From: Clostridia bacterium
Lineage (GTDB): Bacteria > Bacillota > Clostridia > UMGS1883
Assembly (NCBI GenBank): GCA_051866635.1
Contig: JBJDXJ010000006.1
Span: 1-10,186 of the forward strand
DNA length: 10,186 nt
Reading direction: 5' to 3'
Part shown: positions 1 through 10,186 of the stretch, one piece after another
Layout: every line of letters begins with the position of its first letter
Numbering within the stretch: position 1 is the first letter of the stretch
The notes under the pieces: generated by a model
Seen by the model: only the letters and a program-made list of their open reading frames with translations
What the model was told of the DNA's origin: nothing
The model's database searches: none
Made by a program: the position numbers and the translations under genes

Positions 1-350
1 CACGCTGTCGGGGATTGTTATCTCCTTTAAACTGCTGCAGAAACAAAACGCATTATTCCCTATACTCGTCACGCTATCGGGGATTGTGACGCTCGTTAAA
101 CTGCTGCAACTATAAAACGCACCCTCCCTAATAATCGTCACGCTGTCGGGGATTGTTAACTCCGTTAAACTGCTGCAACTATAAAACGCACCATCCCCTA
201 TACTCGTCACGCTGTCGGGGATTGTGACGCTCATTAAACTGTTGCAACTATCAAACGCATTATCCCCTATACTCGTCACGCTGTCGGGGATTGTGACGCT
301 CATTAAACTGCTGCAACCATAAAACGCATACATCCCTATACTTGTCACAC
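1..350. repeat. Intragenic 69-bp tandem repeat (about 5 units visible) encoding the LRR units
   Basis: CGTCACGCT(G/A)TCGGGGATTGT recurs at 67, 136, 205 and 274, is degenerate at 343 and partial at 1; period is exactly 69 bp = 23 codons. Confidence 0.95.
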
Positions 351-594
351 CGCTGTCAATCACAACAGATTTGATAATTGACCGATTTCTGTACCACGGC
401 ACAGATGAAAAAAATTTCCAGACTGTCATACCACCACTGCCGCTTATTGTAAGGGTACCTTCATCGTCAAGTGCCCACGTTAAATTTTCGCCGCAAGTAC
501 CGCTTGCCGTTTCGGCAAATACCGGCATTGGCACTGTCAAAACGATGTTAAAAACCATGCAGAGTATTAGCACCGTACATAAAAACTTTTTCAT
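1..594 (-). CDS. Secreted/surface BspA-like (LRR_5 / TpLRR) leucine-rich repeat protein, 5' part; runs off the left edge
   Basis: Not in the ORF track because no stop lies in the window. ATG at 594-592 with GAGGTG RBS at 607-602. Manual translation: signal peptide MKKFLCTVLILCMVFNIVLTVPMPVFA, cap SGTCGENLTWALDDEGTLTISGSG...PWY, then 23-aa repeats such as SVTIPDSVTSIGDNAFDSCNSLM. Confidence 0.93.
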   Translation of the reverse strand, partial: MKKFLCTVLILCMVFNIVLTVPMPVFAETASGTCGENLTWALDDEGTLTISGSGGMTVWKFFSSVPWYRNRSIIKSVVIDSGVTSIGMYAFYGCSSLMSVTIPDSVTSIGDNAFDSCNSLMSVTIPDSVTSIGDGAFYSCSSLTELTIPDSVTIIREGAFYSCSSLTSVTIPDSVTSIGNNAFCFCSSLKEITIPDSV

Positions 595-702
595 AAAACT
601 TCACCTCACTGAAAACTTGGTTTTAATATATCACAATTTCTATATTTTAGTCAATATAAATATATTATATTATGAATATATTTATAATATATTTTAAAAT
701 AT

Positions 703-737
703 TGATTTATATTATAATAAATCACGAGGTGATTTAT
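703..737. promoter_or_regulatory. Three TGATTTAT boxes in alternating orientation overlapping the RBS of the RHH gene (putative operator)
   Basis: TGATTTAT 703-710 (+), ATAAATCA 717-724 (-), TGATTTAT 730-737 (+); GAGGTG RBS at 726-731. Confidence 0.5.
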
Positions 738-920
738 GTGGCTAAAAATGTTATACGAATAAACAAAAAAGGCGAAGACGGCTACAAAGTAATATCCGTC
801 CGTATAAAAGAAGGTGTATTAAAAAAGATTGACGATTTATCCGAGCAAAGCAACCGTTCCCGAAACGAACTTATAAATATTATCCTGGAAAGCTCCGTTG
901 ACGACGTGGAAATAAACTAA
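738..920 (+). CDS. Ribbon-helix-helix (CopG-like) DNA-binding protein, 60 aa
   Basis: GTG start at 738 after GAGGTG is better supported than the track start at 672. VISVRIKEGVLKKIDDLSEQSNRSRNELINIILE fits the RHH strand-helix-helix pattern. Confidence 0.85.
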   Translation: MAKNVIRINKKGEDGYKVISVRIKEGVLKKIDDLSEQSNRSRNELINIILESSVDDVEIN

Positions 921-950
921 AATCCCAAGCAAAATTTGCTTGGGATTTTT
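919..950. terminator. Probable bidirectional intrinsic terminator
   Basis: AAAATCCCAAGCAAA / TTTGCTTGGGATTTT inverted repeat with A and T tracts, between convergent genes. Confidence 0.85.
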
Positions 951-984
951 AATATGCAAAACAGTAAACGGCTATATTTTTGCC
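947..984 (+). repeat. Imperfect 38-bp direct repeat, copy 1 (copy 2 at 2957-2994)
   Basis: TTTTAATATGCAAAACAGTAAACGGCTATATTTTTGCC vs TTTTAATATTCAAAACCGTAAACGGCAGCATTTTTGTC; 32/38 identical with no gaps, counted by hand. Confidence 0.8.
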
Positions 985-1004
985 GATAAGTTATGATTTA
1001 GTTG

Positions 1005-1211
1005 TTACACAGCTTGCCGTGCGGCAATATATAAATCAATATCCTCTATAATATAATTGCTGCCGGTAGTGTGCAATGCTTCAAAACAGCTTACTATATA
1101 TTCCGAAACCTTATACTTACTAAAAATTTCTGCAACCTGCTTACCTGTGAGATTTTTTGCCGATTTATACTGTTCAATGCAAAAAATTAAAAAATTACCT
1201 TCTTTACTCAC
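1005..1211 (-). CDS. DUF3791-family small protein
   Basis: FxIFCIEQYK..KNLTGKQVAEIF.KY.V.EYI..CFEALHT.G..YIIEDID pattern; GTG start with GGAGGAGG RBS; DUF3990 neighbour. Confidence 0.8.
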   Translation of the reverse strand: MSKEGNFLIFCIEQYKSAKNLTGKQVAEIFSKYKVSEYIVSCFEALHTTGSNYIIEDIDLYIAARQAV

Positions 1212-1213
1212 AA

Positions 1214-1453
1214 TTACACCTCCTCCGGGAATAGAAAGCCGCCCGTTTTCTGTTCTTCGTCAAACATATTGAATAGCGTTAAGGGGCTTAAGTGCCACAA
1301 TTTTGTTTCCTCCTGCTCTAAAGCTTCATACACTTTTGATTTATAGAATATATCCGATGCCTCTATTTCATCCCATGAATAGTTTTTCACAATCAGTTCA
1401 ATTACAGCAGGAACTATTAAAATCAGCATTGCTTCAAACTTTTTCTTATCCAT
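1214..1453 (-). CDS. Conserved hypothetical protein of DUF3990 operons (DUF3791-like, acidic)
   Basis: 79 aa with motif FYKSKVYEALEQEETKLWHLSPLTL; TAATG overlap with the upstream gene. Confidence 0.75.
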   Translation of the reverse strand: MDKKKFEAMLILIVPAVIELIVKNYSWDEIEASDIFYKSKVYEALEQEETKLWHLSPLTLFNMFDEEQKTGGFLFPEEV

Positions 1454-1944
1454 TAAAACTCCTCCTCCGGCACCGTTCCCGTAAATTTCAAATACGAAAA
1501 TGCTTTTTCTGAGGCAAACACCATTTGATCATAAAGCTTTTTTACTTTCAACGCTTCAAGAGTTTGTTCCTTTGTCAACGCACCTGCCTGATAAAGAGTA
1601 AATGTTGTATATACGTCATCATTTGCTACCGGTCCGTAAATTATGTCGTAATTTTCGCCTTTATAATTTCCGGAACGGTTTGCGGCTACAAAGTCGAGCC
1701 ATTCTTCATCAGGTGCATTAAACCTTAAGACTAAACATTCTTCAAATATTTTTTTCTCGTCAACCTCATATATTAAAACTTGCATTTTCCCCTCTTTTTT
1801 TCTTTTAAAAACCTTTTGGGCAAAATTAATCGCTTGCACCTTATTAGTTGTTGTATAAAAACCAAAGCCAAAATCAAGAAATCTGTTCTGCGGTATAAGT
1901 TTTGGTTGCCTGGCAACAATATTACTGCCGTGATAAACTATCAT
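1453..1944 (-). CDS. DUF3990-family protein (putative ADP-ribosyltransferase-like fold)
   Basis: Motifs [43 protein letters not shown] and QMVF; ATGA overlap with the upstream gene. Confidence 0.85.
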
Positions 1945-2240
1945 ATGTTCCCCTCCAATGCCTTTTGTGCAATTTTCAATTCACCTTCAAGTGATTTTAT
2001 CATCACTTCAATATGCTTCCTTTTTTCGATAAGCATTTCGATTTCTCCGGCATCTTTGCCAAGATATTTCGTCACTATTTTTTTACCGTCACGATATTTT
2101 AAGTAATAATACACCTTCCCGTTTTTGTCAACGGACGAAACACTCCCCTTTGGAAGACGGCTTAAAATACCCCTGTATTCATCAAGCATATACTCTATCC
2201 TGTGTTTTTCTTTAAGTATAGTATTAATTATCAAATTCAC
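1941..2240 (-). CDS. Hypothetical basic protein, first gene of the DUF3990 operon
   Basis: Helical ends flank the core LPKGSV...[25 protein letters not shown] at 2240 follows an AGGTGA RBS (2251-2246); the track start at 2249 would be essentially leaderless. Confidence 0.75.
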
Positions 2241-2257
2241 ACCTATCACCTACGGTT

Positions 2258-2286
2258 ATTATATACAACATTTCTAAAAATGTCAA
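2258..2286 (-). promoter_or_regulatory. Consensus sigma-A promoter of the DUF3990 operon
   Basis: TTGACA (2286-2281) - 17 nt - TATAAT (2263-2258). Confidence 0.85.
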
Positions 2287-2358
2287 CCATTGTTGTAGAC
2301 AACGGTTGAAAATCCATAGCTTTTGGCATAACCTTTTGTATAATAACATTTTTTGTAA

Positions 2359-2395
2359 AAAACAATCCGCTGATTACATTTCAGCGGATTGTTTT
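2359..2395. terminator. Hairpin overlapping the 3' end of the Arc-like gene; terminator-like
   Basis: AAAACAATCCGCTGA / TCAGCGGATTGTTTT 15-bp inverted repeat with a 7-nt loop holding the stop codon; T tracts on both strands. Confidence 0.75.
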
Positions 2396-2553
2396 ATTTC
2401 ACCATGTTCTTTTTCAAAAGCGGCTATTCTCTTTTTAATCATTTGCTCAAGCTCTTTATTCTTTGTTCTGCCCTCATATTCTGCTATATAGCCAAGTTTT
2501 TCTAACAAAACAGGATTAATACGCAATGTGTATCTTGCCAAGCAATCTTTCAT
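2374..2553 (-). CDS. Arc/TraY-like ribbon-helix-helix DNA-binding protein, 59 aa
   Basis: ATG at 2553 with GGAGG at 2565-2561; RYTLRINPVLLEKLGYIAEYEGRTKNKELEQMIKKRI is an Arc-type RHH pattern. Confidence 0.85.
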   Translation of the reverse strand: MKDCLARYTLRINPVLLEKLGYIAEYEGRTKNKELEQMIKKRIAAFEKEHGEIKQSAEM

Positions 2554-2576
2554 TTTGACGCCTCCAAAATTAACTA

Positions 2577-2605
2577 TTGACATCATTATAGCGTCACAGT
2601 ATAAT
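2577..2605 (+). promoter_or_regulatory. Perfect sigma-A promoter divergent from the Arc-like gene, with an embedded TGAC-N11-GTCA inverted repeat
   Basis: TTGACA 2577-2582 - 17 nt - TATAAT 2600-2605; TGAC 2578-2581 / GTCA 2593-2596. Confidence 0.8.
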
Positions 2606-2659
2606 TATATGTAATAATGAAGCAATTTTGACTCATAGTTTTTTAAAGGGCTGATATAT

Positions 2660-2732
2660 TTGATTTGCACATTTGGCGGTGCTTACCAAAATGTTACGCC
2701 AAGGAAAAACCGTAATTAATTTGTCGGAATAA
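2660..2732 (+). pseudogene. Probable internally deleted remnant of a SLOG/DUF1273-like small gene
   Basis: TTG start reads MICTF-GGAYQ; after a +1 frameshift it reads MLRQGKTVINLSE*. These resemble the recalled N- and C-terminal motifs (CTFxGHR...GGA...GKxVINL) of a clostridial family often divergent from Arc-like genes. Lies just downstream of the perfect promoter. Confidence 0.5.
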
Positions 2733-2790
2733 TACATAAAGTCATTTTTGCTTTAATGTATAATCAAATACTTTTTTAACAGAAATATGA

Positions 2791-2956
2791 GAGGAGCTGT
2801 AAAAAAAGTCTCTAAAGAAATAAGTTAAGACCATTTGGGACAGCCCCCCTTTGGCAAATTGGGAGATAATTTGCCAAAGAAACCTTGCGAGGTTTTGTTG
2901 GGACAGTCCCGAAATGGTCTTTTTGTTATCTCAGAGCCACTTTTTTTTACAGCCTC
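2791..2956. mobile_element. ~165-bp nested-palindromic MITE-like element, copy 1
   Basis: Near-identical to 7373-7533 (2868-2947 identical to 7447-7526); terminal inverted repeats GAGG(AG)CTGTAAAAAAAGT / ACTTTTTTTTACAGCCTC; no ORF. Confidence 0.8.
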
Positions 2957-2994
2957 TTTTAATATTCAAAACCGTAAACGGCAGCATTTTTGTC
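2957..2994 (+). repeat. Imperfect 38-bp direct repeat, copy 2
   Basis: 32/38 identical to 947-984, offset 2010 bp. Confidence 0.8.
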
Positions 2995-3024
2995 AAGTTT
3001 ATTAAATGGATTTAACAAACTTGA
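2993..3024. other. AT-rich hairpin downstream of sigG
   Basis: TCAAGTTT-A-TTAAAT / ATTTAA-C-AAACTTGA; the single mismatch is a G-U pair on the minus (sigG) strand; no U tail on that strand. Confidence 0.5.
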
Positions 3025-3087
3025 TTTACTTTTAGAGTTTATTAATTTTATATTACATTTTTCCAAAAAATCGCATAAACAATCGAG

Positions 3088-3855
3088 CTACACATACTTT
3101 TTCATATGCTTAATTGCACTTTTTTCAAGCCGTGACACCTGTGCCTGGCTTATGCCAATTTCCTCGGCAACCTCGGTTTGTGTTCTGCCACGGAAAAACC
3201 TAAGGTCAAGTATTTGTTTTTCCTTATCATTTAAGTGGTCCATAGCTTCCTTTAAAACAATATGCTCAATCCATGATTCATCATTCTTTTCATCGGACAG
3301 TTGGTCCATAACAAACACCGCATCACCACCGTCATGGTACACAGGCTCAAACAGGCTTATAGGCTCGCTTATTGCATCTAATGCAAAAACTATTTCCTCC
3401 TTGGGTTTCTCAAGTTCCTTTGCAATTTCGTCTATGGTGGGTTCTTTTCCGTTAAGATTTGTAAGCCGTTCTTTAATGCTCAATGCACGGTATGCCGTAT
3501 CCCTTAAAGAACGGGATACACGTATGGAATTATAGTCACGAAGGTACCTTCTTATCTCCCCTATTATCATTGGTACGGCATAGGTGGAAAACTGCACCCC
3601 CTGCTCCGTATCAAAATTGTCAAGTGCTTTGATAAGCCCAATACACCCTACCTGAAACAAGTCGTCGGGGTTTTCGCCTCGGGAAGAAAACCTGCCTATA
3701 ATACTTAAAACAAGCCTCAAATTTCCATTTATGAACTGTTCCCTTGCTGACATATCGCCTTCTTTTATTTTTACAAAAAGTTCTTCCTTTTCTTTAGCTG
3801 AAAGCACAGGTAATTTGGAAGTATTAACTCCGCATATTTCTACTTTATTTATCAT
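3088..3855 (-). CDS. sigG: RNA polymerase sporulation sigma factor SigG
   Basis: Diagnostic N-terminus NKVEICGVNTSKLPVL, region 2 GNLRLVLS..DDLFQVGCIGLIKA..FSTYAVPMIIGEIRRYLRD, region 4 TQTEVAEEIGISQAQVSRLEK. ATG at 3855 follows GGAGG at 3865-3861. Confidence 0.95.
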   Translation of the reverse strand: MINKVEICGVNTSKLPVLSAKEKEELFVKIKEGDMSAREQFINGNLRLVLSIIGRFSSRGENPDDLFQVGCIGLIKALDNFDTEQGVQFSTYAVPMIIGEIRRYLRDYNSIRVSRSLRDTAYRALSIKERLTNLNGKEPTIDEIAKELEKPKEEIVFALDAISEPISLFEPVYHDGGDAVFVMDQLSDEKNDESWIEHIVLKEAMDHLNDKEKQILDLRFFRGRTQTEVAEEIGISQAQVSRLEKSAIKHMKKYV

Positions 3856-3856
3856 A

Positions 3857-3912
3857 AAATCCTCCATAAGAAAGATATATTAAAATCTTTCCCACAGAGG
3901 ATTTTTTTATTC
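3857..3912 (-). promoter_or_regulatory. Putative SigF/SigG-type promoter of sigG overlapped by an RBS-sequestering stem
   Basis: GAATA (3912-3908) - 15 nt - GGAAAGATT (3892-3884) fits G(A/C/T)ATA-N15-GGnnAnAnT. Stem AAAATCCTCTGTGGGAAAGAT / ATCTTTCTTATGGAGGATTTT. Confidence 0.65.
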
Positions 3913-3951
3913 CAATATAGGAAATTAGAAATTCCCTATATTGGAATAAAA
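3905..3951. repeat. 17-bp perfect inverted repeat
   Basis: TTTTATTCCAATATAGG (3905-3921) / CCTATATTGGAATAAAA (3935-3951). Confidence 0.85.
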
Positions 3952-3965
3952 TGCATTTTATCATA

Positions 3966-4079
3966 TTGCCGTGCGAGAATTTCCTCACATGCTCGGAAAA
4001 TGCAGATGGCGTAACAAAGTGTTTGCTCCTGTGTTCGCTTTAGCTAAGCTAATGCCAAAGGTGAGGAGACACTTTGTTA
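3966..4079 (+). repeat. Two-hairpin element, copy B (hairpin 1 homologous to 9551-9597 minus)
   Basis: Hairpin 1 GCCGTGC..TTTCC..GGAAA..GCAGATGGC (3968-4010), one base, then hairpin 2 TAACAAAGTGT..CTCCT / AGGAG-ACACTTTGTTA (4012-4079), which contains the rarA stop. Confidence 0.7.
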
Positions 4080-5339
4080 TTGTTCCTTACTCTTTACGCT
4101 TTTCCAATAATTCTCATTGGCAGATTCAATTTTATTTTTCCCGTAAATATAGTATTTTTTATTTTTTAATTTATCGGGTAAATACTGTTGCTCAACATAA
4201 TTGTTCGGATAGGAATGAGGGTATTTATATCCAACACCGTGACCTAAACTTTCACTGCCTTTGTAGTGGCTATCCTTTAAATGGGCAGGCACTTCCCCCG
4301 TGTCACCTTTTGCAATATCATTCATGGCTTCATCAATTGCACAAATTGCACTGTTTGACTTTGGTGCTGTTGCAAGCATTATAACTGCCTCCGCCAAAGG
4401 TATCCGTGCTTCGGGAAGCCCCAGTTGCAGTGCCGCATCTACACACGCCTTTGTTATAACTATTGCATTGGGATATGCCAAACCTATATCCTCTGCCGCC
4501 ATAACAAGTAATCGTCTGCAAACACTTTGAATATCACCGGCTGTAAGAAGTCGTGCCATATAATGAATAGCTGCATCTACATCGCTTCCACGGACAGATT
4601 TCTGGAATGCAGAAAGCACATCATAGTGATCGTCACCGTCACGGTCATGGCGGAAGCTTTTTTTACTTGTGGTTTCCTCCACTATTTCAAGTGTAATATT
4701 CTTTTTACCCTCACTATCCCACTTGGCGGAAAGTGCCGCAACCTCCAAGGTGTTCAACGCTTTTCTAACATCACCGGAACAGGTGTTTGCAATATGTTCT
4801 TTTGCATCGGGATTTATAGAGACATTATCCCCCATTTCACCCAAAGCTCTGTCAAGGGCAATAACAATATCACCGGGGCTTACAGGCGAAAATTCAAAAA
4901 CCGTGCAACGTGACAATATGGCATTATAGACATAAAAGTAAGGGTTTTCTGTAGTGGAGGCAATAAGTGTAACCTTGCCGTTTTCAATACATTCAAGAAG
5001 GCTCTGCTGTTGCTTTTTATTGAAATTCTGTATTTCGTCTAAATACAACAGAACACCATCGGTACCGAAAAGCATTTCACTTTCCTGTATAACCTGTTTT
5101 ACATCCGAAACGGAAGCGTTTGTAGCGTTAAGTTTATACAGCCTTTTATTTGCACGCTTTGCCGCAATGTTGGCAACAGTTGTCTTGCCGACGCCGCTGG
5201 GTCCGTAGAAAATCATATTAGGGATATTACCGCTTTCCAAAATGTTTCTTAAAACCTTCCCCTCGTCCAGTAAATGGTGCTGTCCAACAACCATATTCAA
5301 TTCATCAGGACGTATCCTGTCCGCCAAAGGACTGCTCAT
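4077..5339 (-). CDS. rarA: Replication-associated recombination protein A (RarA/MgsA AAA+ ATPase)
   Basis: PLADRIRP, VVGQHHLL, Walker A GPSGVGKTT, LDEI, ASTTENPYF, SAFQKSVRGSD, EDIGLAYP, APKSNS, YKYPH..QQYLP; start MSSPL at 5339 after a GAAGGAAG RBS. Confidence 0.96.
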   Translation of the reverse strand: MSSPLADRIRPDELNMVVGQHHLLDEGKVLRNILESGNIPNMIFYGPSGVGKTTVANIAAKRANKRLYKLNATNASVSDVKQVIQESEMLFGTDGVLLYLDEIQNFNKKQQQSLLECIENGKVTLIASTTENPYFYVYNAILSRCTVFEFSPVSPGDIVIALDRALGEMGDNVSINPDAKEHIANTCSGDVRKALNTLEVAALSAKWDSEGKKNITLEIVEETTSKKSFRHDRDGDDHYDVLSAFQKSVRGSDVDAAIHYMARLLTAGDIQSVCRRLLVMAAEDIGLAYPNAIVITKACVDAALQLGLPEARIPLAEAVIMLATAPKSNSAICAIDEAMNDIAKGDTGEVPAHLKDSHYKGSESLGHGVGYKYPHSYPNNYVEQQYLPDKLKNKKYYIYGKNKIESANENYWKSVKSKEQ

Positions 5340-5366
5340 AAAAATCTTCCTTCTCTTAAAAATCAA

Positions 5367-5392
5367 GCAAACTCAGGCTTACCTGAGTTTGC
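5367..5392 (-). terminator. Terminator-like hairpin between glyA and rarA
   Basis: GCAAACTCAGG / CCTGAGTTTGC stem followed on the minus strand by TTGATTTTT (interrupted U tract). Confidence 0.65.
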
Positions 5393-5408
5393 AAAAAAGC
5401 TGTTATCA

Positions 5409-6641
5409 TTAGTAAAGAGGGTATTTGTCGCAAAGAGTCTTTACTCTCCGTCTGATTTCATCCTGCTTTGTTTCAAATTCACAAGCAGTAAGATACATCA
5501 AGTCCGCAATTTCTTTCATATCCTCTTCTTTGAAGCCACGTGTCGTAACAGCAGGTGTACCAACTCTGATACCGCTTGTAACGCCGGGCTTTTCAGGGTC
5601 AAAGGGGATTGCATTTTTATTAACTGTAATACCAACCTCGTCAAGGCGGTGTTCAAATTCCTTACCTGTCATATTAAATGGACGAAGGTCAACTAACATA
5701 AGGTGGTTGTCAGTTCCGCCCGAAACAAGGTCAAAGCCCTTGTCTAAAAGTGCTATGCTGAGAGCCTTTGCATTTTTAGCAATTTGATGCTGATAGTTCT
5801 TAAATTCTTCGGAAGATGCTTCTTTGAAGCATACAGCCTTAGCCGCAATAATATGCATCAAAGGACCGCCCTGTATTCCGGGGAACACAGCCTTGTTAAT
5901 AGCCTTTGCATGTTCTTCTTTGCACAAAATAAGTCCGCCACGGGGACCGCGAAGAGTCTTATGGGTTGTAGTTGTAACGAAGTCAGCGTAAGGCACAGGA
6001 GAAGGATGAACACCTGCCGCAACCAAGCCTGCAATGTGTGCCATATCAACCATAAAATATGCGCCCACTTCTTTTGCAATTTCGCTAAATTTCTTAAAGT
6101 CAATCTCTCTTGAATATGCACTTGCACCTGCTAAGATAAGCTTAGGCTTACATTCGTGTGCAAGTCGTCTGATTTCTTCATAATCAATAACCTGTTCATC
6201 CTCAGTTACACCGTAGGGAACAATGTTAAAGTATTTACCACTCATATTAACGGGACTGCCGTGTGAGAGGTGACCACCATGTGCAAGGCTCATGGAAAGA
6301 ACAGTGTCGCCCGGGTTTAAAACAGCAAAAAATACTGCCATATTTGCCTGTGCACCACTGTGAGGCTGTACGTTTGCATGTTCAGCACCGAAAAGTGCCT
6401 TTGCTCTTTCTATTGCAAGAGTTTCAACTTCATCAACGTATTCACAGCCACCGTAGTATCTCTTTCCGGGATAACCTTCAGCGTATTTGTTTGTAAGAGG
6501 ACTGCCCATAGCTTCTAAAACAGCTTCGCTTACAAAATTTTCAGAAGCGATAAGTTCAATCTTGTTTCTCTGTCTTCCGATTTCACGTTGCATCGCTTCA
6601 TAAACATCAATGTCAACTTCTTTAACTTTGTTAAATTCCAT
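5409..6641 (-). CDS. glyA: Serine hydroxymethyltransferase
   Basis: [38 protein letters not shown]-lysine motif [31 protein letters not shown] at 6641 after AAAGGAG; the longer track start overlaps the promoter. Confidence 0.98.
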
Positions 6642-6672
6642 GGTAATTCTCCTTTGAAAAAAACTTGACTTC

Positions 6673-6701
6673 ATTATAACTAATAATTCTTTATTTTTCA
6701 A
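6673..6701 (-). promoter_or_regulatory. Sigma-A promoter of glyA
   Basis: TTGAAA (6701-6696) - 17 nt - TATAAT (6678-6673). Confidence 0.7.
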
Positions 6702-6738
6702 GCACTTTGTGATAAAATATTGCATGAGGTGAGAAAAT

Positions 6739-7374
6739 ATGCGAAAAAAAGAACGTGCAACAGAATTTATAAAAATACTGGAGCACTTATATCCCGATGC
6801 AATCTGTTCCCTTGTATACTCCGACCCTTTCCAACTATTGTGTGCGGTACAGCTTTCTGCACAGTGTACCGATGCACGTGTTAACCTTACAACACCTTAT
6901 TTGTTTTCAAAATTTCCCGATGCACTCTCCATGTCAAAGGCAAAATTGGAAGATGTGGAATTAATAATAAAGCCTTGCGGTTTTTACCACAACAAGGCAA
7001 AAAATCTCATAAACTGTGCAAAGCAACTTGTTGAGGAATACAACTGTACTGTTCCCGATAATATGGACGAATTGCTGAAGCTGTCAGGTGTAGGAAGAAA
7101 AACAGCCAACCTTATATTGGGCGATGTTTACCACAAAGGCGGAATGGTTATTGATACCCACGCAAAACGTATATTGTACCGCATGGGCTTAACAAAAGAA
7201 ACTGACCCTGTAAAAGTGGAGTTTGACACTTCTCCCTTAATTCCTACAGATAAGCAATCAGAATTTTGCCATCGCCTTGTGTTATTCGGCAGAGATATAT
7301 GTACTGCAAGAAAAACCTACTGCGACAAATGTCCCGCAAAGGATTTTTGCCCCAAGAATAAGTATAAGAATTGA
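6739..7374 (+). CDS. nth: Endonuclease III
   Basis: [11 protein letters not shown], HhH motif [13 protein letters not shown], catalytic IDTH, 4Fe-4S motif C-x6-C-x2-C-x5-C; GAGGTG RBS. Confidence 0.96.
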
Positions 7375-7533
7375 GGCTGTAAAAAAGTATCTAAAGAAAT
7401 AAGTTAGACCATTTGGGACAGTCCCCCTTATGGCAAATTGGGAGACAATTTGCCAAAGAAACCTTGCGAGGTTTTGTTGGGACAGTCCCGAAATGGTCTT
7501 TTTGTTATCTCAGAGCCACTTTTTTTAAGCCTC
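7373..7533. mobile_element. ~160-bp nested-palindromic MITE-like element, copy 2
   Basis: GAGGCTGTAAAAAAGT...ACTTTTTTTAAGCCTC, flanked both sides by AATT (7369-7372, 7534-7537); fills the whole gap between the convergent nth and comEA stops. Confidence 0.85.
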
Positions 7534-7535
7534 AA

Positions 7536-8072
7536 TTAGTCTACATAAAAGCTTTCGCAAACTGATTTATATGTGCTTTCATTTAAAACACTTTTAAGTT
7601 CAATCACACTTTTAAATCCGCCATGACTTTCACGATATTCTATAATTCTATTTGCATAATTTGCACCTATTCCCGAAACGGACTGTAATTCTTTACTGTC
7701 AGCAGTATTGAGGTTTACGGCACCTGTCAATTTGCTTCCCTTATAAGGCACATAAATTTCCTGACCGTCATACACATACTCCGCCAGATTGATAGAGTCA
7801 AGATCGGCATTTTCCAAAAATCCGCCTACGTATTTATCAACATCCTTAACCCTTGTACCAATGGGAACAGAGTAAAATCCGCTGTTTAAAACTGCACCTT
7901 TTACGTGTATGCCCACAGTAGCCTCTGTTGCATCTTCGTACAATCGCTCCTCCTGTTTGGTATAAACAAAAGCCGTAATTATAATCGCCACTAAAAACGT
8001 TATCCATATTATAGTTTTTACAAGCTCTTTTCTCTTTATATTCTTATCGTCCAAGTCAATTAGTTTTGCCAT
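7536..8072 (-). CDS. comEA: ComEA-family membrane-anchored DNA-binding protein (TM + SLBB + HhH)
   Basis: N-terminal TM segment, IHVKGAV..SGFY, GGFLENADLDSINLAEYVYDGQEIYVP, VNLNTAD..EL.SVSGIG...A.RIIEYRESHGGFKSVIEL. Confidence 0.88.
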   Translation of the reverse strand: MAKLIDLDDKNIKRKELVKTIIWITFLVAIIITAFVYTKQEERLYEDATEATVGIHVKGAVLNSGFYSVPIGTRVKDVDKYVGGFLENADLDSINLAEYVYDGQEIYVPYKGSKLTGAVNLNTADSKELQSVSGIGANYANRIIEYRESHGGFKSVIELKSVLNESTYKSVCESFYVD

Positions 8073-8542
8073 TATATCGTATTTTCGTACACGCTGTCAT
8101 GCTGTAGGTCAGAAGAGTTATACGCCGCTACAGCCAAAGCGTCACACCTTTCGTTATAATCATGCCCTGCATGTCCTTTTACCCAGATAAGCTCCACATC
8201 GTGAATTGCAAGCTGTTTAAGAACCCTTTCCCACAAGTCAGGGTTCAACGCTTTCTTGCCGTCGCTCTTTTTCCAGCCCTTATTTTTCCATGAATATACC
8301 CATCCGTTTTTGATTGCATCAACCAAATATTTGGAATCACTGTATAATTTAACCTTACAAGGTTCCTTTAAAGATTCAAGTCCAACAATTGCGGCAAGTA
8401 ATTCCATGCGGTTATTTGTTGTCAATATAAAACCCTCACTCATGACTTTTTCGTGTCCGTTAAAAGTCAATATTGCACCGTAACCGCCTTTTCCCGGATT
8501 TCCGCTGCAAGCACCGTCTGTATATAAATTTACTTCCTTCAT
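8072..8542 (-). CDS. rnhA: Ribonuclease HI
   Basis: YTDGACSGNPGKGGYG, TTNNRMEL, SDSKY, NPDLW, WVKGHAGH.YNERCD.LA. Confidence 0.98.
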   Translation of the reverse strand: MKEVNLYTDGACSGNPGKGGYGAILTFNGHEKVMSEGFILTTNNRMELLAAIVGLESLKEPCKVKLYSDSKYLVDAIKNGWVYSWKNKGWKKSDGKKALNPDLWERVLKQLAIHDVELIWVKGHAGHDYNERCDALAVAAYNSSDLQHDSVYENTI

Positions 8543-9459
8543 CTGATTACGTTCGCCATAGCCTTCAAAATAGAATTTTCATCGTCACGCTGAGGCTTTT
8601 CGGCTCTTACCAAACTCCAGCTTTCAGAGTGAGTCGTAGTGTCCCCGGCTTCCAAAAGTGTAAGAGGTGACAAACACTCCATTTCTGTATAGCCGTCACA
8701 AGTATAACATTCACAGTTACAGTTATTGTCAGGATACTGTACATTCTTTTCATAATCAAACTTTTTAACAAAAGCAGCATTATTTACAAAATAGACCATA
8801 TATCCATGTTCGTTAATCACACCAAGCTTTGCCGCTTTGTCCGTATTTCTCTGGTCAACTGTGATAAATTCATCACCAATATAGAATCTTTCATCGTTCA
8901 TAGGTGTATACTGCCAGAAGCAAACCCACTTATTTGGGAAAAATCCTGTATCTGTAACATTCTGAGGAATAACACAAAGACCGCCTGTCTGACAAACAGT
9001 AACTGTCCAGGGTGCAATCTTTGTTGCCCACGCACCATTGTTTGTAACGGAATGTTTAATGTCAACATCACCGTTTTCCTTCATGGTGATACATGTTGTA
9101 TACTGCATAAAAGTCCATTCCTGCACAGGTGCTTCCAAAATGGCACCATTTTCGGTTATTGTACATTCAACCTTATAATCATCGGGGTAATATGTTCTGG
9201 GGTGGCGTTCGGGGCTAAGCCAAAGGCGATGACCACCTACAACGCACCAAGTATCACCCTTAAAAGGTGAGGCTGAAACATCGTTTGTATATTTGTTTTC
9301 TGTATCTTCAAAAAACATGTTTTCTTCGCCAACGTAAGCATAACGAACAATATAGGGACCACGTTCCAGCGTTGCAATAAGCTCCTTTTCACCGTTTGTA
9401 ATTTTTAAACATTCACCATAATTTCCGTATGTAACTTTTGAAACTTCAACTTTACTCAT
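8539..9459 (-). CDS. Conserved hypothetical protein, probably DUF4380 / galactose-mutarotase-like beta-sandwich
   Basis: 306 aa; motifs GP.IVRY, GGHRLWLSPE..RTYYPD, YPD..CNCE.YT, EMECLSPL, H.ESW; ATGA overlap with rnhA. Family assignment is from recall. Confidence 0.7.
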   Translation of the reverse strand: MSKVEVSKVTYGNYGECLKITNGEKELIATLERGPYIVRYAYVGEENMFFEDTENKYTNDVSASPFKGDTWCVVGGHRLWLSPERHPRTYYPDDYKVECTITENGAILEAPVQEWTFMQYTTCITMKENGDVDIKHSVTNNGAWATKIAPWTVTVCQTGGLCVIPQNVTDTGFFPNKWVCFWQYTPMNDERFYIGDEFITVDQRNTDKAAKLGVINEHGYMVYFVNNAAFVKKFDYEKNVQYPDNNCNCECYTCDGYTEMECLSPLTLLEAGDTTTHSESWSLVRAEKPQRDDENSILKAMANVIR

Positions 9460-9462
9460 AAT

Positions 9463-9597
9463 AATTCACATAGCCTTTCTGCCACAAATAGTAATGAAAT
9501 TTAATTTTTACGCACTTGTTGTGGCGGACAAGGCGTATAGTGTGAATTGTGTCCATGTGCGTTTTCTAAGCTTGCCGGGAACTTCTCGCATGGACAA
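9463..9597 (-). repeat. Two-hairpin element, copy A, lying between the SD and the start codon of the 306-aa gene
   Basis: TGTCCATG / CATGGACA hairpin (9596-9550), one base, then AATTCACA..GCCTT..GCCACAA / TTGTGGC..AAGGC..TGTGAATT hairpin (9548-9463). Confidence 0.8.
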
Positions 9598-9619
9598 TCA
9601 AATCCTCCTTTAAACTATT

Positions 9620-9656
9620 ATACAGTTATTATAACTGTATTAACTCTTTTTTGCAA
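9620..9656 (-). promoter_or_regulatory. Sigma-A promoter of the hypothetical-rnhA-comEA operon with an overlapping perfect palindrome
   Basis: TTGCAA (9656-9651) - 17 nt - TATAAT (9633-9628); ATACAGTTAT-T-ATAACTGTAT at 9620-9640. Confidence 0.7.
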
Positions 9657-9664
9657 GATAATTA

Positions 9665-9693
9665 TTGACTAAATATTGAATTTGTGGTATTCT
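9665..9693 (+). promoter_or_regulatory. Sigma-A promoter of tadA
   Basis: TTGACT (9665-9670) - 17 nt - TATTCT (9688-9693) with extended -10 TG; AAGGAG RBS at 9704-9709. Confidence 0.65.
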
Positions 9694-9717
9694 GTCTTGG
9701 TGTAAGGAGTTATTGAA

Positions 9718-10185
9718 ATGACTAATCGTTTTATGCAAGAAGCACTGAATGAAGCATACAAGGCACTTGAAGTGGGCGAAATTCCCATTGGTGCGGTCAT
9801 TGTAAGAAATGATGAAATTATTGCACGTGGCCATAATCTTCGCCAGACTATGCGTAATTCTCTTCTTCATGCGGAGATTGTTGCAATACAGAATGCTTGT
9901 AAGGTTATAGGAGACTGGCGTTTGGACGATTGTGACATTTATGTAACTTTGGAGCCTTGCACAATGTGTTCAGGTGCAATTATAAATGCACGGATGCGGC
10001 GTGTGTTCTTCGGTGCTTACGATGCTGAATACGGCGGTGCCGGTGGTAAGATTGACCTTTTTGCCCCGTGCTACTTTGGCAGTAAGACAGAAGTTTACGG
10101 AGGTATCATGGAAAAGGAATGTACAGATTTTTTAAATAACTTCTTTTCCGATATCCGTAACAAGAAAAAGAAAAAATCTGAATAG
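9718..10185 (+). CDS. tadA: tRNA adenosine(34) deaminase
   Basis: FMQEAL.EA.KA...GEIPIGAVIV, HAE, WRL..C.IYVTLEPCTMCSGAI.NAR, FFSDIR. Confidence 0.93.
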   Translation: MTNRFMQEALNEAYKALEVGEIPIGAVIVRNDEIIARGHNLRQTMRNSLLHAEIVAIQNACKVIGDWRLDDCDIYVTLEPCTMCSGAIINARMRRVFFGAYDAEYGGAGGKIDLFAPCYFGSKTEVYGGIMEKECTDFLNNFFSDIRNKKKKKSE

Positions 10186-10186
10186 T

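Follow-up and report, generated by a model that had tools for sequence, protein, structure and literature searches.

The 10,186-nt stretch of Clostridia bacterium DNA analysed here (contig JBJDXJ010000006.1), referred to throughout as the window, carries on its minus strand a gene for a 306-amino-acid (306-aa) protein. The Shine-Dalgarno (SD) sequence of this gene is parted from its start codon by two long hairpins. The insertion at this locus is real and recent. As judged by sequence comparison, the inserted DNA is a 5'-truncated copy, consisting of hairpins 1 and 2, of an undescribed family of start-codon cassettes of about 165-190 nt. We regard the insertion and the membership in this family, taken together, as very probable. 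To the cassette as a whole we assign the role of a cis-acting, two-state, SD-sequestering leader, a reading which is favoured here and to which we give about even chances. In what follows G000 is the genome of the window, and labels beginning with C, G and L denote contigs, genomes and loci.

The order of elements on the minus strand is promoter, AAGGAGG, ATTTGAT, hairpin 1, a single C, hairpin 2, ATT and ATG. An earlier sequence-only reading of the window had placed the promoter, AAGGAGG, the two hairpins and the ATG, and all of them were found where it had put them (Table 1). The distance from SD to ATG is 144 nt, and the count of 11 unpaired nucleotides (nt) in the insert region agrees with the earlier one. 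The open reading frame (ORF) for the 306-aa protein is intact, also as had been described, and overlaps rnhA, which it precedes, by 4 nt. Its start codon is the conserved one, since orthologues align from residue 1.

Relatives of the 306-aa protein were present in 26 of the 41 genomes searched, including all nine other genomes of the genus, and upstream DNA was compared at 19 orthologous loci. In each of the nine same-genus orthologues (G001-G009) GGAGG is followed by exactly 8 nt and ATG, and the hairpins are absent; examples of such empty sites are AAGGAGGATTTTACC-ATG and AAAGGAGGAATTTACT-ATG. The TTGCAA...TATAAT promoter was kept at four empty loci, three of the same genus (L062, L064 and L065) and one of the same family (L069). 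As the two-hairpin insert was absent at all 19 orthologous loci compared and nine of nine congeners were empty, about 136 nt were gained in the lineage of G000. The sequence-only reading had proposed that an element landed inside the translation initiation region and that orthologues should reveal an empty site with the SD 7-9 nt before ATG. The empty sites of the nine congeners, with their 8-nt spacing, bear out both points. The ancestral site which it had restored by deleting the insert was right in its 8-nt spacing, but the ancestral spacer was probably ATTTTACC-like and not ATTTGATT. The flanking ATT repeats, taken there as the trace of insertion, turned out to have another origin: GGATTTGATT and GAATTATT belong to the consensus of the cassette itself and recur in copies elsewhere, so that there is no target duplication. 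In the empty-site comparisons part of the spacer was replaced rather than duplicated. At one orthologous locus in another genus (L070, G018:C27), a hairpin-1-like module, GATTTTATGCGCCGCCGAATTTTCC...GGAAACGGCGATGCGCA, lies about 25-80 nt upstream of the GTG of the 306-aa orthologue; it precedes an ordinary AGGAGG SD, and hairpin 2 is absent.

The left joint of the insert in the window lies inside GGAGGATTT|GATT. Other copies in G000 (on C11, C25 and C1) read the linker consensus GGCGGATTTGATT at the equivalent place, so the native SD was fused to the SD-like box of the cassette. Filled and empty sites could also be compared at two other genes. For a wecA-like gene, congeners have AAGGAG, 9 nt and ATG, and G000 has AGGAGGGAGAAT and TAAC-GTG..., the cassette and ATT-ATG. 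For the glnN-like gene on C11, the corresponding site in G028, a genome from another family in which the gene is 94% identical, reads AAGGAG, 9 nt and ATG, and that in G000 reads AAGGAG, 9 nt, GTG, the cassette and ATG. From these two sites it follows that the native SD stays in place, the NTG of the cassette replaces the old start, and the old ATG comes to follow the SD-plus-spacer end of the cassette. Presence/absence polymorphism at orthologous sites was seen at all three loci compared. The glnN-like gene itself (type III glutamine synthetase-like, G000:C11:41117-42316) has only 61-64% identity to same-genus genes as against 94% to the gene on G028:C102, which is without the cassette, and a genus-type paralogue is also present in G000 on C61. 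The C11 gene was probably acquired horizontally.

When G000 was searched with a 154-nt query, five full-length matches were obtained: the window itself, an identical match on C41, and matches on C11 (90%), C25 (91%) and C1 (89%). The C41 match duplicates the window region, and the distinct full-length copies therefore number four, with 89-91% identity, in front of different genes. All of these full copies end ...GTGAATTATT-ATG, and every ATG opens a different gene. G000 also contains one copy with hairpin 2 only and about 15 with hairpin 1 only. A second subtype, B2, whose hairpin 2 ends ...GGCGGAATGGAGATTATT-ATG, was seen in five more diverged copies; the window copy belongs to subtype B1.

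Twenty-two copies were aligned with MAFFT (alignment A1) and used to derive an RNAalifold consensus fold and a covariance model, R1. With R1, 47 of 87 genomes from the order, and 14 of 18 genera, proved to contain the cassette; matches numbered 0-32 per genome, a count that includes weaker partial matches. A pattern scan of public species genomes returned at least 120 stretches, and the first 80 loci were scored with R1. The 34 loci that were confirmed all came from records of Clostridia, Clostridiales, Clostridiaceae, Oscillospiraceae, Ruminococcus sp., Congzhengia sp. or Ructibacterium sp., mostly metagenome-assembled genomes from gut, rumen or digester; the NCBI taxonomy places Congzhengia and Ructibacterium within Clostridia, Oscillospiraceae, and the two genera include the named species Congzhengia minquanensis and Ructibacterium gallinarum. 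The other 46 loci, from other phyla, had no R1 match and are chance matches. The taxonomic range given here is a lower bound. Copies within a genome were more alike than copies from different genomes. Rfam, searched at E values up to 1, had no family at the insert in the window or at six full-copy loci, and full-text literature searches gave no paper that, as judged from titles and abstract openings, describes the family. Carriage by phages or plasmids was rejected, as blastn gave no match to the cassette in either a phage or a plasmid collection.

G000 has a second repeat family, which is intergenic and occupies about 15-20 places (e.g. C6:69135-69180, C14:50973-51024 and C49:43902-43952), usually just after terminator-like hairpins. 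It is made up of three hairpins: a near-perfect palindrome, TTTTACATTATAGGAAAT...ATTTCCTATAATGTAAAA, the hairpin 1 module of the cassette, and AACAAAGTGTTTTCTCCTC...GAGGAGACACTTTGTT. The occurrence of hairpin 1 in both repeats hints at a common factor.

Read from its 5' side, a full copy has a purine-rich SD-like box and, about 7-9 nt further on, an NTG, with which the cassette itself begins and which stands in the place of the former start codon of the gene. In the 50 copies with a recognisable SD, the NTG was GTG in 28, TTG in 18 and ATG in 4. Then comes hairpin 0, palindromic and variable in sequence, with CCUCC, the conserved anti-SD core (PMC10783764), at the end of its 3' arm. Among the 71 copies with a CCUCC box, 51 have at least four of these five nucleotides paired with the upstream GGAG-like box in the minimum-free-energy fold. 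Hairpin 0 is followed by a single-stranded SD-like linker, GG(C/U)GGAWUU, by hairpin 1 and by hairpin 2, with ATG 0-3 nt further on. The window copy is without hairpin 0 and begins in the linker. The insert had been regarded in the sequence-only reading as a double-hairpin element. Its two hairpins are there, but it is a truncated member of a large family, in which an SD-like linker and an anti-SD hairpin are the norm and an own SD beside the ATG is frequent. The subtypes are distinguished by this last feature: hairpin 2 of B2 has a GGAG-type SD 6-7 nt before ATG in 33 of 33 aligned copies, and B1, including the window copy, has no GGAG near ATG and only AGAAAGG, 14 nt upstream, at the position of the B2 SD. 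GGCAGAAAGG is invariant in 22 of 22 B1 copies.

Folding of the whole 191-nt window stretch gave a z-score of -2.24, and 7 of 200 shuffles folded as well. The fold proposed earlier for the initiation region is right as to both hairpins, but the single sequence only moderately beats its shuffles, so the structural case rests on comparison. In an alignment of 98 distinct members, pairing is seen in 94.0% of cells, and both sides have changed in 32 of the 35 pairs; none of 500 shuffles reached any of the five measures, and slid partners paired in 35-45% of cells. This alignment was fitted to the model, which favours the fold. Independently, MAFFT and RNAalifold recovered these helices from the 22 copies, and compensatory changes were present in 15 of the 35 pairs. 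In hairpin 1 (helices 1 and 2) 94.9% and 83.6% of cells pair and 11 of 14 pairs have double changes; in hairpin 2 (helices 3-5) 95-96% of cells pair and double changes occur in 21 of 21 pairs. The internal loops are invariant while the stems covary. On the sense strand G-U combinations outnumber A-C (137 versus 67), a modest sign that it is the RNA, and not DNA alone, that folds. The RNA fold of the cassette is strongly supported by this covariation.

The position of the cassette relative to genes is strict. In 79 of 90 distinct copies the cassette ends on the start codon of a long same-strand ORF; for eight more the start comes 1-40 nt later, one is offset by a base, and for two the available DNA has no ORF. 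The eight copies with a later start include one upstream unit of a tandem array and three cysE copies with a GGGAGGAC SD of their own. In these cysE leaders (L048, L083/L053 and L054, from G004, G006 and G008) the terminal NTG of the cassette (ATG, TTG and ATG, respectively) opens a mini-ORF of four codons, which contains GGAGGAC and whose stop overlaps the cysE start (ATGA or TAATG). This arrangement, conserved in three species, resembles coupling of translation from the end of the cassette.

An NCBIfam scan covered 77 of the 87 downstream proteins. The genes include thyX, uvrB, trpS, cysE, nifS, truA, dut, purA, purC, purD, aroC, panD, nadE, hisI, proA, ahcY, metF, lexA, ogt, lepA, ftsY, mnmE and hslO, and those for manganese catalase, transporters and LysR regulators. 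No common pathway or shared function was visible among the 77 scanned proteins, which argues against a metabolite riboswitch. Constraint was assessed in six orthologous pairs by comparing the identity of the element (with hairpin 0) with that of 4-fold-type sites in the first 600 nt of the adjacent gene. The element was 90% identical at uvrB (4-fold-type sites 51%), 84-88% in three cysE pairs (53-64%), 75% at the manganese catalase gene (40%) and 96% at nifS (74%). The cassette was above the 4-fold sites in six of six pairs (75-96% versus 40-74%), which fits purifying selection on the cassette at each locus. We consider it likely that a function of the cassette at the RNA level is under selection.

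Tandem copies show how units are joined. Three nearly identical units stand in an array before a galU-like gene (L214), and another array, in G026, has two full units and the 3' end of a third. The joins read SD-spacer-NTG (...GGAGATGTAAC|GTG...), a unit extending from NTG to the base before the next NTG. The first L214 unit is a hybrid, joined at GGCGGAA, with an arm of a B1 hairpin 2 on one side and a linker of B2 type on the other. In the upstream flanks of L087 and L103 the 3' end of the preceding copy stands in for the 'SD' in pairing with the CCUCC of the copy that follows, so that nested or tandem copies chain head to tail. Together, the window joint, the tandem joins and the L214 hybrid suggest recombination between SD-like boxes, in register with the initiation region. 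In the favoured reading the cassette would spread by such recombination, without a classical transposase. A link to mobilisation of the RAYT/IS200 type was judged unconvincing: a Y1/RAYT-like gene was found in 24 of 47 genomes with the cassette versus 11 of 40 without it, a weak association among genomes that are related and in many cases incomplete, and none was detected in the copy-rich genomes G041 (32 copies), G009 (27) and G026 (15). G000 has a Y1/RAYT-like gene (L268, G000:C38:209307-212549, ORF 1060-1794) with HxH and Y motifs and PF01797; a masked stretch (run of X) lies near its 5' end, and one copy of the intergenic three-hairpin repeat about 1 kb downstream.

Hairpin 2 can be drawn in two mutually exclusive ways. 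In the long form of B2 (alignment A3, 33 copies), the SD region GAGATTA is paired to TAATCTC; covariation is seen in the outer pair (TA in 26 copies, AT in 7). The further strands are CATTCC/GGAATG and a variable inner stem that covaries richly, e.g. TA 19/CG 12 and CG 21/TA 11. The TCTC strand (of AAUCUC) can instead pair with a decoy, AAGAGA, within the hairpin to give a local hairpin of 8-10 bp. Paired changes are seen in this local hairpin also (UUAUCA/UGAUAA versus UUUCA/UGAAA, and CTCCTTT/AAAGGAG in L095). In two copies of one genome a three-way change affects strand, decoy and SD (CCC, GGG and GGG). In the B1 counterpart, hairpin S', most of the 8 pairs form across the 22 copies, with variants in which G-C becomes A-U or G-U. 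The conservation of GCAAGTGCGT in the 'loop' of hairpin 2, for which there is no other explanation, is in keeping with S'. The evidence for a second state is moderate in B2 and thin in B1. The sequence-only reading had listed a switch among its explanations, and the second hairpin lends comparative support to that idea. The layout of the cassette would be that of an SD-sequestering two-state leader, and we put its working as a switch slightly below an even bet.

According to the favoured reading, the cassette would act in cis on the mRNA in two states. In the closed state the 5' strand would pair with the SD/AGAAAGG region in the long hairpin 2. In the open state the same 5' strand would pair with the decoy inside the hairpin, forming the short local hairpin and leaving the start site free. 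Ensemble pairing probabilities, computed on the mRNA from the likely transcription start site, predict AAGGAGG to be unpaired with a mean probability of 0.68; the corresponding values are 0.19 at the AGAAAGG box and 0.09 at the three bases preceding AUG. In the window copy, the exposed native AAGGAGG would serve 30S subunits as a standby site for loading, and initiation would take place at the AUG, using AGAAAGG, once hairpin 2 is open. Ribosomes translating the upstream ORF (uORF) from the TTG at 9597 may help by unzipping hairpin 1 and the 5' arm of hairpin 2. Standby loading or help from the uORF is a tentative proposal for the window copy, to which we give clearly less than even chances. 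AGAAAGG would presumably pair with the extreme 3' tail of 16S rRNA, as expected for Firmicutes; a search of G000 and of 31 genomes of the group turned up no 16S 3' end. Neither a conserved leader peptide nor bicistronic coupling by design was retained as a general mechanism, because the 29-codon uORF frame common to C11 and C1 is broken in C25 by a 1-nt indel, because the frame of the hairpin 0 NTG reaches the main ATG no more often (12 of 50 copies) than control frames do (21 of 100), and because the three frames from the linker NTG show no difference in openness.

In its widest form this would make the cassette a portable translational switch, a mobile RNA-encoded regulon in gut Clostridia. 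Three initiation-region-like boxes, the anti-SD, the decoy and two conserved hairpins would be copied between ribosome-binding sites, and dozens of unrelated housekeeping genes would come under one global signal or RNA-binding factor. We consider this extension rather unlikely.

Several observations weigh against the two-state leader and its spread as proposed. The three-way CCC/GGG/GGG change occurs in one genome and may be one event, and S' is mostly invariant in B1, so covariation there is thin. Nested-only energies favour the closed form by about 5 kcal/mol: the long and alternative folds have -25.7 and -20.0 kcal/mol in the window and -29.1 and -24.0 kcal/mol in a B2 copy, values that leave out a possible pseudoknot between the loop of the local hairpin and the 3' arm. 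The AGAAAGG box is 14 nt from AUG, a long distance for an SD, and uORFs are not frame-conserved across the family. The downstream genes have no function in common that would point to a signal. A non-orthologous control pair from two genomes was also 89% identical, and what looks like constraint could thus stem from concerted evolution or recent spread. For the spread of the cassette neither a recombination enzyme nor a donor came to light.

Four other explanations of the insert were considered. The window gene might be translated from a split SD as in genes 38 and 25 of phage T4, the folded hairpins bringing AAGGAGG beside the AUG and initiation occurring across the loop-out. Both helices are well supported, only 11 nt are left unpaired, the native SD is predicted to be exposed (0.68), and the constraint on the whole fold at orthologous loci would fit fold-dependent translation. 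The T4 precedents are a shortening from 22 nt to 5 in gene 38 and from 27 nt to 11 in gene 25 (PMC3014915). Bridging is physically possible in the window copy, but here the loop-out would comprise 134 nt in two side-by-side helices, not one small hairpin. Full members have only GGCGGA or GGUGGA as the upstream box, directly after an anti-SD, and the B1 copy L080 is without any upstream SD hairpin. B2 copies have their own SD 6-7 nt from AUG, so bridging is not the general design of the family, and for the window copy we think it unlikely. No more credible to us is a selfish or neutral passenger, that is, a repeat tolerated in leaders with the 306-aa gene poorly translated or dispensable. Copy numbers of 0-32 among related genomes, the tandem, truncated and hybrid copies, the unrelated downstream genes and the greater likeness of copies within than between genomes are what a passenger would give. 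A passenger would not be expected to have orthologous copies that beat 4-fold sites in six of six pairs, invariant internal loops beside covarying stems, or a strict orientation and ATG distance in 79 of 90 copies, nor to precede genes expected to be essential (trpS, purA, ftsY and lepA).

The insert might also be removed before translation, by RNA processing or splicing or by reversible DNA excision, or be bypassed by an internal promoter that gives a short leader. A weak promoter-like site, GTGGCA-16-TATTAT, with 9 of 12 matches, does lie in the 3' arm of hairpin 2 (window 9485-9458, minus strand), but its -10-like box overlaps the ATG. A transcript from it would begin inside the ORF and yield no mRNA for the full protein, and a useful internal promoter was rejected since this site was the sole candidate. 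With no Rfam ribozyme or intron match at E values up to 1 and no suitable flanking direct repeats for DNA excision, these routes are very improbable. We see as little chance of a metabolite-sensing riboswitch class. The conserved multi-helix fold, the invariant internal loops, the SD-sequestering helix and the alternative fold are features of such a class, but the downstream functions span DNA repair, nucleotide, amino-acid, cofactor and cell-wall genes, transport, tRNA and regulators; copies within a genome are 89-91% identical, loops included; identical units stand in tandem arrays; and there is no Rfam match.

The features of the window locus are listed in Table 1. The best NCBIfam match of the 306-aa protein was NF052227 (TTE1925-family mutarotase), with an E value of 2.6e-78 and 263 bits as against a cut-off of 550; Pfam gave no match. 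A 10,131-nt stretch occurs twice in the assembly with 100% identity, at window positions 56-10186 (= G000:C6:56-10186) and at G000:C41:22998-33128, and this doubling reflects a true large duplication or else redundancy from assembly or binning. C41:22291-23290 also contains several staggered matches (80-88%) to the first approximately 350 nt of C6, a pattern suggestive of a tandem repeat.

Table 1. Features of the window around the start of the 306-aa gene.
Feature	Position	Strand	Remarks
Native sigma-70-type promoter, TTGCAA-17-TATAAT	9656-9628	minus	10/12 consensus matches in promoter scan; outside the insert
Native SD, AAGGAGG	9610-9604	minus	Joined at GGAGGATTT to the SD-like linker of the cassette (GGCGGATTT in other copies)
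Linker/junction, ATTTGAT	9603-9597	minus	Left border of inserted DNA lies inside, after ATTT; from filled versus empty comparison
Hairpin 1, 47 nt	9596-9550	minus	4+5-bp lower stem, AU bulge, purine-rich bulge, variable upper stem; -12.1 kcal/mol folded alone
Hairpin 2, long form, 86 nt	9548-9463	minus	Foot 3 nt 5' of ATG; -25.0 kcal/mol folded alone
Alternative local hairpin S' (ACGCCUUG / CAAG-U-GCGU)	9536-9510	minus	Rival of the GCCUU/AAGGC stem of long hairpin 2
AGAAAGG box, candidate internal SD	9480-9474	minus	In 3' arm of hairpin 2, 14 nt before ATG; invariant in subtype B1
Candidate 29-codon uORF	9597-9508	minus	TTG at 9597, 6 nt after AAGGAGG; TAA stop 9510-9508 in hairpin 2 loop
Start codon ATG of 306-aa gene	9459-9457	minus	Final 3 nt of family model
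306-aa ORF, intact	8539-9459	minus	TTE1925-family mutarotase-like, below family cut-off
rnhA	8072-8542	minus	Pfam RNase_H, E 3.5e-42; 4-nt overlap with 306-aa ORF

If the favoured reading is true, one structured leader, reusable and hiding the ribosome-binding site, would stand before many core genes in a clade of abundant uncultured gut and rumen Clostridia, among them genes for tRNA synthetase, purine, DNA-repair, cofactor and cell-wall functions. The cassette would then be a natural modular and transferable part for translation control. It would also mean that a conserved gene can still be served by an initiation region whose parts lie more than 130 nt from each other, and that such a part can spread by recombination between ribosome-binding sites, a route distinct from transposition. 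In practical terms, gene callers and models of ribosome-binding sites will misjudge starts at cassettes, and the covariance model is ready for annotating such genomes.

Like the REP2 repeats of Neisseria, and the Borrelia IR-A/IR-B repeats likened to them, which the repeat descriptions in PMC3184786 give as dispersed repeats of 120-150 bp with internal stem-loops and no terminal inverted repeats, the cassette is dispersed and multi-copy, has internal stem-loops and lacks terminal inverted repeats; its unit is about 165-190 nt. The same descriptions (PMC3184786) have REP2 repeats immediately upstream of many ORFs, to which they give the ribosome binding site and the ATG; the cassette, too, directly precedes ORFs, and in 79 of 90 copies the ATG is part of it. 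The likeness is one of description only. REP2 is described there as having its own promoter, whereas the window copy uses the native promoter of the gene. Unlike REP2, the cassette splits an existing SD-ATG pair, sets an anti-SD hairpin against the native SD and has a buried SD of its own and a decoy hairpin; it also forms tandem arrays, and its hosts are Clostridia. With T4 genes 38 and 25 (PMC3014915) the window locus shares an SD that is far from the AUG in primary sequence with folded RNA between them. The T4 genes, in that account, loop out about 16-17 nt in one small hairpin, in contrast to 134 nt in two long hairpins in the window. The cassette differs further in being multi-copy and in that most members have another SD-like box beside the AUG.

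Bacterial miniature inverted-repeat transposable elements (MITEs) and modular intergenic repeats include the Correia, BOX, RUP and ERIC elements, and REP/BIME with RAYT. The cassette resembles them as a small, non-coding, multi-copy hairpin repeat that is co-transcribed with its neighbours and polymorphic for presence or absence. It differs in having neither terminal inverted repeats nor target duplication, and in its strict orientation and position at the start codon. Inspection of aligned copies showed no inverted relation between its 5' end, AACGTGAAA..., and its 3' end, ...GGAGATTATT or GTGAATTATT. In a 2024 review of prokaryotic MITEs (PMC10969869) the terms start codon, ribosome binding, Shine-Dalgarno and translation initiation are absent. 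With the expression platforms of riboswitches and RNA thermometers the cassette has in common an anti-SD strand that can pair with the SD or with an alternative partner, and a start codon at the foot of the sequestering helix; it differs from them in being multi-copy, with signs of mobility, no coherent regulon and no Rfam match. The cassette family is a combination of dispersed repeats carrying translation signals with SD-sequestering leaders, and the family itself is new.

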